Shown piece by piece: positions 17,803 to 26,730 of a stretch of 64,000 nt of DNA. The notes under the pieces are model-generated. The model had not been told where the DNA came from. It saw only the letters and a program-made list of their open reading frames with translations, and ran no database searches. Made by a program: the position numbers and the translations under genes. Within the stretch, counting starts at the first letter, position 1. Each line of letters begins with the position of its first letter. Location: sequence record OR885871; one strand, given 5' to 3'. The stretch comes from Escherichia phage vB_EcoM_JN03.

Positions 17803-18183
17803 TCAGTTTGTGCGTTTTAACCATATGGTGTCTGTTATCGGCTCTGGGTTGTTGACCACATAGAACGTGATGGTTACGCCCAGAGAATGATAATCGTCCG
17901 ACAATGATACATCAACAGATTGCAATTCAGCTCTTGGCTCAAAAAGAGCAATGGCATCTTCAACTTTGTTCTTCACGTCGACCTGTATCGTGGGATTTGT
18001 GTTTTCTCCCAGCATGGTATACAACCCCGCCCCAATACTCGGATACGTCGGCCAATCACCTACCGTCGCCATCACTATATTACGCACAGATTGTAGTACA
18101 GCATAAATGCCTGTTTTCTTAGTGACATCTTTGGTGACCGGATGCATGCCAAACTTCAGGTCAATGTCCTTGTACTCTTTCAT
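17803..18183 (-). CDS. baseplate wedge protein (gp25/GPW-like), tentative
   Basis: About 126 aa, adjacent to hub protein; RBS AGGGG before ATG 18183. Confidence 0.4.
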   Translation of the reverse strand: MKEYKDIDLKFGMHPVTKDVTKKTGIYAVLQSVRNIVMATVGDWPTYPSIGAGLYTMLGENTNPTIQVDVKNKVEDAIALFEPRAELQSVDVSLSDDYHSLGVTITFYVVNNPEPITDTIWLKRTN

Positions 18184-18247
18184 GTTAAACCCCTTTGGAT
18201 ATTGCCTCTCCAGCACGAGAGGGCATTATCTGCCCTCACCAGTGTAA

Positions 18248-19873
18248 TCATGCGCCTTTACCACCAAAATTGCCGCCGTTATCCTCTAACTCCGGTTTTA
18301 TATCAATTGGACCTGGGCCTGTAGTTGTTACAGGAGTTGCCCCCGCACGTGAGGCGGCGCGGCCAGCGCCTTCAGCATATTTGATGTTGCCTTCAATAGT
18401 CTGCGCAACCGATAATTTATCGCAAATTATTTCAGTTGCCAGTATCTTAGGAACCTTCAAAGTGTTAGACACTTCAAACATTTCACAGATGAGACGCAAC
18501 ACGTTCTGTGCCTGTATCTCAGCCAATTGGGAAAATTTCATCAACGCCGTGCCAGCGACCACATTGGAGTAGTTAGAAGAGTGCAAGTGGTAAACTTCTC
18601 CTGTCTTACGCTGTACTTCAGTCCCGCCGATAGTCAGGTTATGATCGCGCCCCACATAATAACGTTTGTCAAACATCGTCAGATCATAATGATCTTTGAC
18701 TGATTTATTGACCACGTCCCCGTCAGGAAGCATCTGCTTATAAGACCCCGAGGAGTGCATCCAATGGAGACGTTCCCCGCCTGGAGTGTCATCGACCTCC
18801 ATAATATGCCCAGCTCGAGAAGCCATAACATTGTTGTATGGATAACGAGACCCTCCAGCCGAAGGAACCGATACCTCTCCTGTGTTGTCAATATCCTGAA
18901 CACGACCAGAAGGAGGCGGTGTTTCTTGGACTTTCGGGGTACGATCTGGAATAGGTTCAGACCATTTACCGTTTTGTTGTGCCGGAGCTGCTGAAGCTGT
19001 AGTTTCTGGACCTGGCCAACGATAACCCAACACGGATGAGCGGCTAAAACGGCTCACCTTCACCGAATCGGATTGGTTTCCCCCGATACACCAAACGTAG
19101 TTGGCGTCAAATTTCTGAACGAATGCAACGTGACCGAATGTCGGGTTGTTCCCGCGCCGGAACACTACAACAGCGCCGTAACGTGGTTCTGACAGAGGAG
19201 ATCCCCATTGTAGATATGAGCGAGCCAAAGCAGAACGTGTTGATGTATATCCGGCCTGTATCAGAACCCATCCAACAAACGACGCACACCAACTAACTTC
19301 ATCTTCTGAAGCCCCCAGGGAAGTTGTCTTATGATATTCCAATATCCTTGGGTTGTTATTGAACTTACCAGAATATTCTTTGACGCCCAATTCCCCACGA
19401 GCCACGGTCATCCACTTCTCAGGATCATATCCGCCTACTGGTGGTTGTGGATCCGGTTGCGGTTCATCCTCAATCTTAACAGGAACATTCTCGACGGCAT
19501 TATACTTCTGCCTTTCTATAGATTGAACGACCTGACCCAGCGCCAATGGGTTTGTATCTGACCCATCTGTTGGTGTTGCTGCTGGCCATACCCATGCAAT
19601 ACGGATGTTCTGATATGCTTCATCCAAAGCAAACCCCATGACGTCAGAGCCGACAGTGATACCCGTCGGAGACCAGCCTAAACCTGCCGAGGAGGCGTTA
19701 GATGCTGGCATAAGCATTTTACCCCAAGGCAATAATTCTGTAGGCAGGAGAGTGGTATCCTCCGTGTGTACCCCATAGATGCGTACTGCGACGCGCCCGT
19801 TTTGATCGGGATCATTCACGTCTTCAACGCGCCCGTAAAACCAACGCAAGTTGTCTAACATATTGAAACCCAT
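18248..19873 (-). CDS. baseplate hub/central spike protein with CHAP peptidoglycan hydrolase domain (gp5-like)
   Basis: N-terminal gp5-like OB-fold region; central CHAP-type Cys (WCASFVGW) and His (GHVAFV). Confidence 0.55.
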   Translation of the reverse strand: MGFNMLDNLRWFYGRVEDVNDPDQNGRVAVRIYGVHTEDTTLLPTELLPWGKMLMPASNASSAGLGWSPTGITVGSDVMGFALDEAYQNIRIAWVWPAATPTDGSDTNPLALGQVVQSIERQKYNAVENVPVKIEDEPQPDPQPPVGGYDPEKWMTVARGELGVKEYSGKFNNNPRILEYHKTTSLGASEDEVSWCASFVGWVLIQAGYTSTRSALARSYLQWGSPLSEPRYGAVVVFRRGNNPTFGHVAFVQKFDANYVWCIGGNQSDSVKVSRFSRSSVLGYRWPGPETTASAAPAQQNGKWSEPIPDRTPKVQETPPPSGRVQDIDNTGEVSVPSAGGSRYPYNNVMASRAGHIMEVDDTPGGERLHWMHSSGSYKQMLPDGDVVNKSVKDHYDLTMFDKRYYVGRDHNLTIGGTEVQRKTGEVYHLHSSNYSNVVAGTALMKFSQLAEIQAQNVLRLICEMFEVSNTLKVPKILATEIICDKLSVAQTIEGNIKYAEGAGRAASRAGATPVTTTGPGPIDIKPELEDNGGNFGGKGA

Positions 19874-20204
19874 TAGTCAATTAGAATCATGTGATATTTA
19901 TGGCGGGGATTTGAAATCTGTCGAATAATATATTATAGGAAGCTCTGCTTCCGTTCAACCTTTATTCTTTTCGTTCCTACTCGCTGAAGCTCGTAACACC
20001 GCCTTGACAGGCAGTCCCATTCCAATGCCATGGAGGCATAAAGGCGAGGAAAATACTGTACACCTCAGAACATGCGTAGAAAAGGATTATTTTTGCTTCA
20101 AAACAAATTCAAACCCCAATTGCACAACACTTACTTCAGCAACAACGGTGTTATAGCAATTTAAGGTTAAACGTTCCTGTCTTAACCTATAAAACAGGTA
20201 AGCA

Positions 20205-20232
20205 AAGAAAACCCCACATTACGTGGGGTTGG
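20205..20232 (-). terminator. rho-independent terminator
   Basis: CCCCAC/GTGGGG hairpin followed on minus strand by TTTTCTTT. Confidence 0.5.
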
Positions 20233-20379
20233 AAGATTTCTTAGACAATCTAATTTTCAGTGTCTCGGTAAGCAAATCAAGATGCCACGGCATCGATTCA
20301 CTAATTTCAAATATGCTATAGCCGTGTGCCTTTAATTCGTCACACATCACAAAATAGGAGAGTAAATCAATTTCAAAAA

Positions 20380-21183
20380 TTAAATGAAAATCTCAGTGAC
20401 ACTGTTAAATTTGACTTCGTGTTCTTTCCCACACGAAGGGCATTTAATTTTTGTCGCGTAACGAATACGCGGAATCTTTTTAAAGAAATCATTCGAAATG
20501 TCCTGAACAATCTCAGATTCAATATTGTCCCCAACCCATTTGACAAATTCATCCTTAATGCGTTGGCGTTCTTTAGCAACTTCTGGATCGATACCAGGTT
20601 CAGCCGGATTTTCCACTTTCCAAACCTGACCATCGTCGTCATACAGGCAATCGATAAAGGTGGCAATCATTTGTTCAACAGAGGATGCTTCATTAAGCAC
20701 TGAGGCATCCGAGAAGGACGGCTGGCGCATCTTTATATGATAACCACCTGGTAGATCAAACGTCTCCCTGAAGCCTTCTGGAGACACGCATTTTACCTGA
20801 TTGAGCGGGATCGGTAACACAAGCTCTTGACCACAATCTTTAACACCAGAAACTGGTTCTTCACCTTCATTTGTGTCGGCTTGAACTTTATTGTTACATT
20901 TGTAACGTATCTTCATGACCTCGCCGATAGATATACAGCGCATCTTTAAAAATACTTCTTCAGTAACACCGATTGGCAGTTTACTAAAGGGAACGCCAGC
21001 ATCAACACAACTGTCAAATAGTTGCTCCAATGTTGCCACGCGCTCACTCATAGGAGTGTTCGGATCAGCAACCTGAAGTAACATGGTCTGTTGCCCTGCT
21101 GTAAAGGCGCGGTATTTGATCACAGTCGGCCAGAAATCACTTTTATGTGTTCTCTCAGTTTTGGGCAATGATGGTAAATTCAT
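20380..21183 (-). CDS. zinc-ribbon protein, probable late/structural gene
   Basis: C-terminal KCPSCGKEH; RBS GGAGA; TATAAATA box upstream. Confidence 0.4.
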   Translation of the reverse strand: MNLPSLPKTERTHKSDFWPTVIKYRAFTAGQQTMLLQVADPNTPMSERVATLEQLFDSCVDAGVPFSKLPIGVTEEVFLKMRCISIGEVMKIRYKCNNKVQADTNEGEEPVSGVKDCGQELVLPIPLNQVKCVSPEGFRETFDLPGGYHIKMRQPSFSDASVLNEASSVEQMIATFIDCLYDDDGQVWKVENPAEPGIDPEVAKERQRIKDEFVKWVGDNIESEIVQDISNDFFKKIPRIRYATKIKCPSCGKEHEVKFNSVTEIFI

Positions 21184-21232: not shown

Positions 21233-21757
21233 ATGCACGCGTTCTGTTTCAGTAAAGTGGGGGAGCAACTCGCAATTAATTATCCGGATGCAAACACGGA
21301 CTTTTTTGTATTACTCACAGATTTTGCAAATAAATTGGGGATAAAGAATGTCGCCATGACCGTGTCCGATATGAAATTCGGGTGGCTGGGAGTTAAAGAT
21401 TTATTGAATTATGGATTCAATGTGATTATCGTTGATCCAACGTACAGCCCAATTGAAGAGGATGATGTTATTCCGGTTTGGGTGCAACGAGATATTAACA
21501 CCCTGGACAAACACTATCCGGATTGTATCATCATCGGTGAATTAATACCGTATTTTCATAAACGTCGTCGTCTTGAAACAATTAAAAGTTATTTTCAAGA
21601 TAATGATTGTGGATATAAAATGGTTGTCCTTACGAGCGGTTGGGTTGTGAAGAATACCACAGGCAATGCCGACCGAATTACTTCTCGTCTTTATGAATAT
21701 GTTAAAGAACGGGATTATGAACTGGAGAACAATAATGCCAAACGTAGAACGCGCTGA
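21233..21757 (+). CDS. hypothetical protein
   Basis: ATG ORF; no motif. Confidence 0.4.
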   Translation: MHAFCFSKVGEQLAINYPDANTDFFVLLTDFANKLGIKNVAMTVSDMKFGWLGVKDLLNYGFNVIIVDPTYSPIEEDDVIPVWVQRDINTLDKHYPDCIIIGELIPYFHKRRRLETIKSYFQDNDCGYKMVVLTSGWVVKNTTGNADRITSRLYEYVKERDYELENNNAKRRTR

Positions 21758-25031: not shown

Positions 25032-26166
25032 AGTTTTTGACAACATCCTGTAACAATCCGAGTAAACTACTCTTCTCAGACGCCGTCAGGTTATCATTGC
25101 CTAAGATATCCCTCTGGATGCCGATAGAGATCCTTTCGAAATCAGCCAAGCTGATACCAGCCAGATTGTTTACAAGCTGATCGAGTTGCTTATAAGCCAG
25201 CAGGGCTTCACCTGTGAAGTTTCCTTCTTTGATCTTTTTATACAGCTGTCCGGCTTTTGACGCAGCGGTTTCCCAGTCTCCGGAAGCAAGAGCATCAGTA
25301 ATACCCAAAGGAAGAAAATCGCTGGCGAGGCTGCGCGTTTCATATTCAGTCTCCGATAATACTTTGTTATAAGAAAAGGAAATGTTGTACTGATTAAATT
25401 GATCGGCGGCGCTTTTATCCAGATCTATAGAACTGAAGTTGATGGGGTGAGCCTCAGTCACATAAACGCGATGAACAACCTGATCTTCTGTATCCATTTG
25501 CTCTATACAAATATCGGTCACGAAGTCTTCATAATAACCCATCTTGGTTGTGTATGGGTCGAATATCAGATTCTTCCATTTGTCCATGACCGACTTTTCA
25601 TAATAATCGTTGGCGAGGAGGAACGACAACTCCAGATCAATGTTCGTCTTGTTGTTCGGCATTTTAATGTGGTTGCCGTTGTTGGTCATGGGAGTAGTGT
25701 CAATCCCTGTACCAGGTAAAGATGCGACCATACACATCATTTGCAGGGAACGAGATGTTTGGTTTGTCCCTCCAAAGAATGCGTTTACAATACGGGCGCT
25801 TTGTTTGAATAAATCGCCGAATGAAGATGAAGGATATGCGTTCCCATCATTTGCTAGTGTTGCATTGGAATCAAATATTCCAGGCGGCAATGGAATTGTA
25901 ACACGAAATCTGTTCTTGCGGGAAATACCCCGTTGAAGCAGTTGCGTTAGAAAATTGCGATAGTCTTCCACGATGAGGACTCCATTTAAATAATATATCT
26001 GTTGATATTTATAAGGAGTTGACAAATGGCTAAGAACGCTATGGGTGAAGAAGACCCGTTGTTGCTTCCCGCCGAGATGGACGCCCCAGAACTGGTCAAG
26101 CGTTACATCCGCAAATATCGTCAACATTTTGGGCCGGAAGCGAAGCGTAATATCCGTCGTTCTCAT
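25030..26166 (-). CDS. hypothetical protein (start uncertain)
   Basis: Long minus ORF converging on the SSB terminator; in-frame GTG at 25971 with GGAG upstream is an alternative start. Confidence 0.4.
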   Translation of the reverse strand: MRTTDITLRFRPKMLTIFADVTLDQFWGVHLGGKQQRVFFTHSVLSHLSTPYKYQQIYYLNGVLIVEDYRNFLTQLLQRGISRKNRFRVTIPLPPGIFDSNATLANDGNAYPSSSFGDLFKQSARIVNAFFGGTNQTSRSLQMMCMVASLPGTGIDTTPMTNNGNHIKMPNNKTNIDLELSFLLANDYYEKSVMDKWKNLIFDPYTTKMGYYEDFVTDICIEQMDTEDQVVHRVYVTEAHPINFSSIDLDKSAADQFNQYNISFSYNKVLSETEYETRSLASDFLPLGITDALASGDWETAASKAGQLYKKIKEGNFTGEALLAYKQLDQLVNNLAGISLADFERISIGIQRDILGNDNLTASEKSSLLGLLQDVVKN

Positions 26167-26730
26167 GTGTGGTTTATGGAGCGCGTATCGAAAGATGCGA
26201 ACTTATCTCCGAATCACATGATGAAAGCATTCGCTGAAAATAAACGTCCTGTTCAGGGTGTGCGTTATATTGTTGGTCGCATGTATTATTTCAAATATGA
26301 TGCGCTGACTAAAGATGAACTCCCGTATTGGGATATGTATCCTCTGGTGTTCTTCTTCAATTTTGTGAAGGGGGATGGGGTGAAATTCGGTGAACGTGGT
26401 GTAACCTATCTTTATGGCCTAAACCTCCATTATTTACCGCCTAAACTCAGATTGTTGGTATTTGAAGATCTCATTAAATTGAGAAATGAACGGGCATATC
26501 GTTCTAAAACACGTTTGAGACTTACCTGGGATGCGCTAAAGCGGTTTGCGAATCACCCTTTGTACAATCATTGTGTGAAATTATACCGTGCAGATCAATT
26601 TCGTTCACAACTTTATGAAATTGAACCGCAATATTGGGAGGTCGTTTTGTTTATGCGTACTGCTCGATTCCAGAAACAGAGTCAGATGTCTGTTTGGAAG
26701 GACGCACGTCGTAAACACAAAAATGGTTAG
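26026..26730 (+). CDS. hypothetical protein
   Basis: RBS AAGGAG 9 nt upstream of ATG. Confidence 0.45.
   Translation: MAKNAMGEEDPLLLPAEMDAPELVKRYIRKYRQHFGPEAKRNIRRSHVWFMERVSKDANLSPNHMMKAFAENKRPVQGVRYIVGRMYYFKYDALTKDELPYWDMYPLVFFFNFVKGDGVKFGERGVTYLYGLNLHYLPPKLRLLVFEDLIKLRNERAYRSKTRLRLTWDALKRFANHPLYNHCVKLYRADQFRSQLYEIEPQYWEVVLFMRTARFQKQSQMSVWKDARRKHKNG

Follow-up and report, generated by a model that had tools for sequence, protein, structure and literature searches.

A conserved, predicted structured RNA element and a small overlapping gene between two baseplate hub genes of Escherichia phage vB_EcoM_JN03

In the 64,000 nucleotides (nt) of Escherichia phage vB_EcoM_JN03 analysed here (sequence record OR885871; hereafter the window), a gap of 506 nt at positions 19874-20379 separates a gp26-like and a gp5-like baseplate hub gene, both on the minus strand. 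The gap is exceptional in this compact genome, where the median distance between open reading frames (ORFs) is about 29 nt (a value from a rough greedy ORF call that is noisy, as it picks spurious ORFs, and that was used for the median only), and an earlier note made from the letters of this DNA had rightly singled it out as unusually long. We find that the gap is composite, consisting of a mini-gene coupled to gp26, an intrinsic terminator, a structured RNA domain, and a hairpin with a T4-type late promoter; as judged by comparing sequences, it is functional and not decaying. The RNA domain is a conserved non-coding element, referred to below as the element. The suggestion of the earlier note that the space might hold a small RNA or a regulatory leader stands for about 120 nt of the gap, within its promoter-proximal two thirds, on the grounds of covariation in a 70-nt core, conservation, and paralogous copies.

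The window belongs to Kuttervirus (Ackermannviridae): the region and its flanks share 99.4-99.5% identity with the Salmonella phages heyday, SFP10 and GG32 and with many other genomes of that genus. The gap was aligned for nine genus-level relatives (Det7, LIMEstone1, Magnus, SKML-39, LHE287, CAU_YEP3, EspM4VN, CRW-SP2 and the window itself), and all features are read in the gene-sense direction, that is, on the minus strand of the window. Conservation peaks at 20070-19993, with an identity of 0.81-0.91 as compared with 0.6-0.8 in the flanking structural genes.

Fold and conservation of the element

The consensus fold of the core has four helices. The first hairpin (P1) pairs AUGCC with GGCAU (20039-20035 with 20029-20025) around the loop UCCAU, of which CCAU (20033-20030) pairs with AUGG (20020-20017), four nt 3' of P1, to form a pseudoknot (PK). 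P2, beginning one nucleotide 3' of the pseudoknot, is a helix of 7 base pairs (bp) between ACUGCCU and AGGCGGU (20015-20009 with 20004-19998) with the loop GUCA; and P3 (19994-19979) is the hairpin ACGAGC-UUCA-GCGAGU, in which A-U, C-G, G.A, A.G, G-C and C-G follow one another, the tandem G.A pairs standing in a 5'-YGAR-3' context. With stems of 5 bp (stem 1) and 4 bp (stem 2), loops of 1 nt (loop 1) and 4 nt (loop 3), and 0 nt separating the two stems, P1 and PK together have the make-up of an H-type pseudoknot, and the loop lengths permit coaxial stacking.

Comparison among genera, and between copy 1 (in the gap) and copy 2 (upstream of gp6), bears the fold out. In 23 distinct sequences, 97.6% of the pair cells (20 pairs in the four helices) are paired, versus 28-51% when the pairing is slid by 1-3 columns; both partners have changed at 6 pairs, with at least one such pair in each of the four helices, and the covariation score was reached by none of 500 shuffles. 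For P1, copy 1 has AUGCC-UCCAU-GGCAU where copy 2 reads (G)CAGCC-UCCAU-GGCUG(C), with pair counts of CG:12/AU:11 and AU:12/UA:11. All cells (100%) of the 4 PK pairs are paired, one of them being AU:17/CG:6 with 0 mismatches: the switch from A-U to C-G (6 of 23 sequences) occurs in copies 1 and 2 of Taipeivirus and in copy 1 of CRW-SP2, and a loop CCCU is always matched by a downstream AGGG. P2 varies as CUGUCU/AGACGG, CUGCCC/GGGCGG and one bulged form (pair counts CG:21/UA:2 and UA:16/CG:4/UG:3), while P3 (CG:17/UA:5) has elsewhere a different loop, a stem longer by 5 bp (Kuttervirus copy 2) or, in Aglimvirinae, the form AUGAGC...GCGAAU. Throughout the alignment there are 42 G.U cells and 0 A.C cells, with series running from U-A through U.G to C-G and alternation of A-U with G.U; it follows that only the gene-sense strand has the structure, and that this structure evolves as RNA helices do.

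Several other pairings and readings of the same sequence were considered and not adopted. A closing helix between the 5' box (CUUUUC/CCUUU) and GAAAAG/AAAGG after P3 is present in the minimum-free-energy fold of the single sequence, is absent from the consensus fold, and is broken by Kuttervirus variants (GCUUU; AAAG-U). An alternative helix UCGC/GCGA in copy 1 is invariant, and the G-to-A change of Aglimvirinae is compensated in P3 instead. Two micro-ORFs overlap the core, MPPWHWNG..C (from ATG 20038) and MALEWDCLSRRCYE... (19933..20031): in Taipeivirus and CRW-SP2 CCATGG is replaced by CCCTGG, the first ATG is missing in copy 2, and relatives differ by insertions or deletions of 1-2 nt. The 5' box was also considered as a general promoter motif, and was dropped as such since the window holds only this site and one loose coding match at 21584 on the plus strand (mean in shuffled sequences, 0.42).

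Searches for known RNAs at the element were negative. A permissive scan of 19700-20600 against Rfam 15 returned as its best matches eukaryotic and archaeal small nucleolar RNA models, at E values of at least 1.3 and far below the gathering thresholds, and a scan at the gathering threshold of the other 95 kilobases (kb) of SFP10, including copies 2 and 3, returned only transfer RNAs (tRNAs). A covariance-model scan for non-coding RNAs, proposed earlier as a check, would have missed the element, which no Rfam family covers. ARAGORN found neither a tRNA nor a transfer-messenger RNA at the element, and a search for host mimicry found 0 matches in 5,426 E. coli genomes; more than 120 exact-pattern matches in bacterial genomes were discarded as chance occurrences in G+C-rich DNA, with at most 26 bits versus 80 bits for true copies. 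The literature search found no paper on the element or on transcription in Ackermannviridae or Kuttervirus, the LIMEstone paper annotating promoters and terminators only. The element would be an undescribed RNA family within a known general kind, the structured regulatory RNAs of phage leaders.

Further copies of the element

A covariance model, built from the alignment of both copies across genera, has a single match in the window (Table 1); in the remaining 95 kb of SFP10 it finds a strong copy upstream of gp6 (81.5 bits) and a weak third copy upstream of gp45. BLAST likewise places part of the conservation peak twice in most Kuttervirus genomes, and a 17-base degenerate pattern of the core has two sites in every complete Ackermannviridae genome that it matched in IMG/VR, with three unrelated chance matches (several contigs recur in the list of matches). 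Copy 2 precedes the gp6-like baseplate wedge gene, in an intergenic region between divergent genes, at the head of a minus-strand cluster of structural genes of about 40 kb. The 5' box occurs as TAAAAACTACTTTTCTAC upstream of gp6 and as TAAAAATCGCTTTCTTG upstream of gp45, and each element is followed on its 3' side by an A/U-rich stretch and a TAAAT(A/G) box. Sigma-70-like promoter candidates are located on the correct strand upstream of copy 2 (TTGATA-18-TATTAT, 10/12 matches) and also of copy 3.

The element upstream of gp45 (SFP10 91.26-91.60 kb) has the 5' box TTGAATAAAAATCGCTTTCTTG and is without P1, pseudoknot and P2. Instead it carries a long hairpin (ACGAGUUGUGAGCUUUGCGAGCAACGAGU) in which there are two tandem-G.A modules and which has its homologue 5' of P1 in copy 2, and a P3 of the form ACGAGC-GAA-GCGAGU; then comes TATAAATG, overlapping the hairpin AAAUGCC-GUCA-GGCAUUU. 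This element is kept in Aglimvirinae, with the variant UGAGC...GCGAA. In Miltonvirus a pseudoknot-less type is found upstream of gp5. Of all these parts a distant Vibrio phage keeps just one hairpin, GGGGUGAGC-GAA-GCGAACCCC, of the P3 type extended by G-C pairs, 25 nt before the gp5 start codon. For Vibrio phage D503, a distant relative, this hairpin is all that the extremely A/T-rich spacer holds, and it directly follows a TATAAT box there.

The tandem-G.A hairpin was also considered as the signal of a regulon and rejected: a loose pattern occurs once in the window, where 2.25 occurrences are expected by chance, and there are three intergenic sites genome-wide. Separately, the exact 17-mer GGTGAGCGAAGCGAACC (tandem-G.A stem with a GAA loop) was seen at 64 IMG/VR loci, on many unrelated viral contigs both A/T-rich and G+C-rich, often just after TATAAATA-like boxes or within repeated G+C-rich units (ggagGGTGAGCGAAGCGAACCgaggccgaggaca...). 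No Rfam family was found at the 12 of these loci that were tested, and the GGTGAGCGAAGCGAACC hairpin may be a widespread regulatory signal of phages that has gone unrecognised.

The small gene, the terminator and the late promoter

The remaining parts of the gap and the neighbouring genes are listed in Table 1. An ORF scan finds no ORF of at least 60 amino acids between the hub gene and the gp26-like gene, and the earlier note had seen no convincing ORF in the gap at all; for the gp26-proximal third this was mistaken, and the non-coding part proper is about 345-357 nt (19862/19874-20218).

Table 1. Features in and beside the gap, with window positions
Feature	Position	Strand	Basis
gp26-like baseplate hub subunit, upstream neighbour	20380..21183	-	Pfam T4_baseplate E 1e-51; PHROG 150 'baseplate hub' E 1e-63
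Small conserved gene, 53 codons + stop, IFEIDLLSYFVMCDELKAHGYSIFEISESMPWHLDLLTETLKIRLSKKSSNPT	20219..20380	-	PHROG 9633, E 1.9e-36
Intrinsic terminator of the gp26/small-gene transcript (predicted)	20200..20232	-	terminator scan and covariation
Poorly conserved spacer, about 100 nt	20095..20199	-	identity trough 0.48-0.52 at 20150-20090
Whole conserved non-coding element (5' box and core)	19976-20094	-	comparative alignment
5' box of the element, AAAAATAATCCTTTTCTAC	20076..20094	-	common to gp6 and gp45 copies
Core of the structured element, 70 nt	19976..20045	-	covariance model 80.4 bits, E 1.9e-21
Hairpin P4, GGAAGC-AGA-GCUUCC	19938..19952	-	covariation
T4-type late promoter box CATAAATATC of the hub gene (predicted)	19893..19902	-	conserved in all genera compared
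gp5-like baseplate hub / tail lysozyme (CHAP), downstream gene	18248..19873	-	PHROG 430 E 5e-157; Pfam Gp5_OB and CHAP
gp25-like gene	17803..18216	-	profile searches

The small gene directly adjoins the gp26 homologue on its 3' side, and its match to PHROG 9633 spans the full 49-position profile. It also resembles phrog_634, 'baseplate hub assembly catalyst' (the annotation of T4 gp51), with E values of 3.5e-3 for the window, 4.4e-4 for Limestone and 9.8e-8 for Miltonvirus, a match that covers about 48 of the 121 profile positions (about 40%), the small proteins having 49-66 residues; Pfam gave no match. The gene is likely a gp51-like hub assembly factor by this similarity. T4 gene 51 is, we presume, likewise a neighbour of gene 26. 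The segment is the best conserved of the whole region, with a nucleotide identity of 0.8-0.9 between genera, and its stop codon is placed in the loop of the terminator. An intact coding gene in related phages, which the earlier note would have taken as a sign of simple gene decay, does exist for the gp26-proximal 160 nt only; it does not point to decay, the window's own copy being intact and conserved. In Vibrio phage D503 the order gp26, mini-gene (with a TAATG overlap), terminator and gp5 is also kept.

The first codon of the small gene is ATT (20380-20378), which shares the last base of the gp26 stop codon TAA; candidate starts within the gene are GTG 20350 and ATG 20347. Counted by locus, the start context is TAATG in 11 cases (Limestonevirus, Agtrevirus, other Aglimvirinae-like genomes, and also a Vibrio phage), TAATT in 17 (Kuttervirus and Taipeivirus) and TGATC in 2 (Miltonvirus and an Aeromonas phage), with ATC serving as the start codon in Miltonvirus and Tedavirus. 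The N-terminal residues stay conserved despite this variation between ATG, ATT and ATC. Because L6 and F10, both encoded upstream of the internal GTG and ATG, are invariant in the alignment with distant homologues, and because third-position substitutions predominate in that upstream part among relatives, the N-terminal extension is very probably translated; this in turn would imply re-initiation at an AUU (or AUC) that overlaps the gp26 stop codon, and suggests termination-reinitiation at non-canonical AUU/AUC codons. Coupling to the gp26 stop codon accounts for the lack of a Shine-Dalgarno sequence. Annotations of the gene exist in Det7 (gp92), LIMEstone1 (ORF060), SKML-39 and others; it is missing from many GenBank records, or begun at the internal GTG in them, because its start is ATT or ATC; a correction of the annotation follows for this gp51-like mini-gene.

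Four smaller signals that the earlier note had read from the sequence are all present, one of them with little conservation. Its minus-strand terminator has a stem of 9 pairs (20230-20210; 5 G-C) followed by the T-rich tail TTCTTTGCTT, and compensatory changes across genera (AACCCCAC/GTGGGGTT, AATCCCGC/GCGGGATT, AACCCCGC/GCGGGGTT); it lies directly after the small gene and has the G+C-rich stem and the U-run that mark an intrinsic terminator, and the equivalent is annotated in LIMEstone1 and Magnus. Its hairpin at 20163-20190 exists (AGGTTAA/TTAACCT, 7 bp, 20164-20188) and is poorly conserved, lying in the variable spacer. An extended -10-like box, TTGCTATAAC (TGcTATAAC), stands in the same spacer at 20159-20150 (by eye in the alignment; TGTTATAAT in Agtrevirus), and is a possible promoter for the RNA element.

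The hairpin that had been noted at about 19937-19952 is P4, which covaries (GGATGC..GCATCC, GGCTGC..GCAGCC; pair counts AU:9/UA:4 and AU:12/CG:1) and is flanked by a conserved GAAC before it and a conserved UAUAAUAU after it. The terminator scan did not call P4, whose tail UAUAAUAUAUUAUU has no U-run. Two readings of P4 are offered, one as a weak terminator or 3' end of the element and the other as the spacer in a promoter-like arrangement TTGAAC-N15-TATAAT (TATAAT at 19937-19932); the second was made by eye, its 15-nt spacer being outside the range of the promoter tool. The late-promoter-like box is conserved in all relatives. With its TATAAATA-like -10 box, no -35 box, and a gp55-like late sigma factor annotated in SFP10, it has the features of T4-type late promoters and is a predicted promoter of that type; the equivalent box is annotated as a late promoter in LIMEstone1, and many genes of the window have the TAAATA core about 30-45 nt before their start. 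The hub-gene ATG at 19873, the first in frame, is specific to Kuttervirus, and the other genera all begin at the ATG matching 19861 (MLDNLRWFYG), so that the true start is probably ATG 19861 and not 19873.

Some observations were made outside the gap. The window has a second large gap of about 420 nt between divergent ORFs (26167-26587), with TAAATA boxes nearby at 25987 (plus), 26011 (minus) and 26436 (minus). Its cumulative GC skew has a minimum at about 20-21 kb, no more than 1.2 kb from the element, and a maximum at about 42-43 kb, both at switches of gene orientation. In SFP10, about 2.2 kb without annotated genes lie within 134.4-137.4 kb, between SFP_0168 and the tRNA cluster, downstream of the gene that diverges from copy 2. 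The records OR844942 and OR844944 ('Enterococcus phage Efm 3-10') and MN871475 ('Pseudomonas phage Pa-sanjiao') are 94-100% identical to Kuttervirus in the regions compared and are probably mislabelled or contaminated entries.

Proposed role and comparison with known systems

We propose, with a probability of roughly one half, that the element is a cis-encoded regulatory RNA carried on long transcripts begun upstream of the late promoter. The parts, fold, strand, copy number and conservation are observed; transcription, the start and end of the transcript, and a binding partner are inferred, as follows. The RNA domain would be transcribed in the same direction as the baseplate genes; in such transcripts its pseudoknot stack, together with the G.A modules, could act as a binding platform for a phage or host protein, and binding of that protein might set how much read-through or stable messenger RNA (mRNA) reaches gp5, gp6 and gp45. 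Several points weigh against this proposal. The stability of the fold is unremarkable (z = -0.47; not significant on either strand), so that the evidence for it is comparative and not thermodynamic. The lineages are few, about 5-6 genus-level groups with two copies each that may exchange sequence, and the covariation events are accordingly few. The sigma-70 scan found no minus-strand promoter for copy 1 in the spacer, and the literature search found no Ackermannviridae transcriptome. The copy upstream of gp45 shows that baseplate genes are not the only ones to have the element. The late promoters are found on its downstream side (in copy 1 the box is about 75 nt away), so the main late mRNAs would lack it, which makes a translational operator of the gene 32 type unlikely. 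Finally, hairpins with GAA loops and G.A pairs are also classic signals of single-stranded DNA (PMC13037366).

The position of the late promoters, which leaves the main mRNAs in no need of the element, would suit a separate small RNA gene that acts in trans on a host or phage target; it would be about 130-170 nt long, begin with the 5' box, end with P4 and have paralogues at two other loci. So would the discrete conserved block set between variable sequences, the multi-copy modular design, which resembles families of small RNA paralogues, and the hairpin with an A/U-rich tail after each Kuttervirus copy (P4; AAACGC..GCGUUUUGAUU in copy 2; AAAUGCC-GUCA-GGCAUUUAUUUAU in copy 3). These 3' hairpins, however, have no proper U-runs and none is called as a terminator on the strand of the element, those of copies 2 and 3 being flagged only on the opposite strand; no conserved single-stranded seed is evident, the conserved nucleotides being mostly structural; and the maintenance of the site upstream of the same three genes across genera suggests a link in cis. 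We rate a small RNA gene as rather unlikely. The few copies per genome, the size of about 70 nt with several hairpins, the candidate promoter upstream and the terminator-like hairpins downstream, together with the place of copy 2 at the head of the 40-kb cluster, could also belong to a put-like RNA for processive antitermination, whose nascent fold, alone or together with a phage factor, would work in cis on RNA polymerase to carry it past P4 and later terminators. In phage HK022 antitermination is the work of two put sites of similar size. Yet the element has no similarity to put in sequence or structure, no Rfam family matched it significantly, the window has many TAAATA boxes, and copy 1 precedes two genes only, gp5 and gp25; T4-type late genes have many individual late promoters and, to our knowledge, no need of antitermination. 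Such an activity seems quite improbable.

The element could instead act as DNA, its hairpins forming in the single-stranded form of this strand and marking a replication origin, a priming signal, or the loading of a clamp or another protein near late promoters. Tandem G.A pairs in a 5'-YGAR-3' context are stable in DNA. All three loci lie beside A/T-rich stretches at or near points where gene orientation diverges, and the cumulative GC-skew minimum of the window is close by; this minimum, though, is explained by the switch of gene orientation at 21.2 kb. T4-type primases, as far as we know, need no hairpin signals. The P3 hairpins of relatives contain GCGAAGC (copies 1 and 3 of Aglimvirinae, copy 2 of Agtrevirus, Limestonevirus and Taipeivirus, and copy 3 of SFP10), which is absent from the window, where P3 is GC-UUCA-GC and so no mini-hairpin. 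GCGAAGC is an extraordinarily stable DNA mini-hairpin found at the priming origins of G4, St-1 and alpha3, in RSF1010 ssiA and in the hairpin promoters of N4 (PMC13037366). Against DNA as the acting form stand the G.U (G.T) wobbles, which are frequent and conserved (the one in the middle of P2 in 21 of 23 sequences), and the alternation of A-U with G.U and the covarying pseudoknot, both hallmarks of RNA; we consider a DNA-level element improbable. As for the remnant of a deleted gene that had been suggested earlier, or a functionless neutral spacer, the many short spurious ORFs that overlap the region and the thermodynamically unexceptional fold speak for it; nothing in the gap is decaying, the core is better conserved than neighbouring essential genes between genera that differ by about 30%, its substitutions are compensatory, the micro-ORFs are excluded by insertions, deletions and lost ATGs, and paralogous copies are kept at orthologous positions. 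Gene decay is, as far as such comparison can show, excluded, and a neutral origin of the element is very improbable indeed.

A broader version of the cis-regulatory proposal, which we hold only tentatively and regard as doubtful, is that the copies form a new modular class of structured RNA (pseudoknot and tandem-G.A hairpins; types A and B, three loci) controlling genes of virion assembly and late transcription, namely gp5, the gp6-led cluster and the gp45 clamp gene. Possible modes for such a class include an antiterminator, protein-independent or factor-dependent, and an R-loop or primer RNA through which late promoters close by would be coupled to replication and to the loading of the clamp. 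Kuttervirus phages and their relatives (Vi01, CBA120, Det7, LIMEstone, and the Klebsiella phages of Taipeivirus) are widely used for therapy and biocontrol, and their gene regulation is essentially unstudied. A non-coding element that surpasses the neighbouring structural genes in conservation points to a further layer of control in these phages; it offers a precise and testable handle of about 70 nt with defined pairs, and would add a new family to the RNA databases.

Among known systems, the HK022 putL and putR sites are like the element in being folded stretches of about 70 nt with several hairpins, in few copies per genome, after promoters and before terminators; unlike it they consist of two stem-loops without a pseudoknot and serve lambdoid early transcription; the likeness is positional only. 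Relatives' P3 shares with the G4-type initiation signals and mini-hairpin DNA (GCGAAGC / GCGAAAGC) the small stable hairpin, the GAA loop, the sheared G.A pairs and the location in phage intergenic DNA (PMC13037366). Those signals are defined by a GCGNAGC or GCGNNAGC hairpin in a single-stranded initiation region, and P3 of relatives carries exactly GCGAAGC where that of the window has its UUCA loop; here, by contrast, the phage is a double-stranded DNA phage of T4 type with its own replisome, and wobble and pseudoknot covariation favour RNA. The G.A/A.G pairs flanked by C-G and G-C in P3, and in the long hairpins of the gp6 and gp45 copies, resemble the tandem G.A modules of RNAs such as the kink-turn, the hammerhead core and box C/D. 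A kink-turn was rejected since the G.A pairs of P3 have Watson-Crick pairs on both sides and no 3-nt bulge. The Limestone copy, whose 5' strand gives UGAUGAGC...GCGAA, resembles a hammerhead core (UGAUGAGC-GAA-GCGAAU), but Kuttervirus has UUACGAGC...GCGAGU, with UUACGAG in place of CUGAUGA; U and not A follows the GAA, and Rfam gave no match. A guanidine-type ACGR reading of P3 was likewise rejected, the defining core not being kept.

The small gene is like T4 gp51 in its similarity to phrog_634 (E down to 9.8e-8) and differs from it in its short length, its partial coverage of the profile, and its non-canonical start in Kuttervirus, Taipeivirus and Miltonvirus. For the element, a further comparison is with the gene 32 mRNA leader of T4 and T2, an autoregulatory operator in which, in T4, a pseudoknot serves as the protein-nucleation site that regulates expression. 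The two have no sequence similarity, and the element differs in having two further hairpins and a tandem G.A module, in lying upstream of the late promoter instead of between promoter and ribosome-binding site, and in occurring at 2-3 loci, before structural and clamp genes, with no binding protein known. They are alike in that each has a compact H-type pseudoknot with a 1-nt loop 1 and coaxial stems (predicted for the element), and in each this pseudoknot is part of the non-coding leader region before a gene of a T4-type phage, with an A/U-rich stretch after it.

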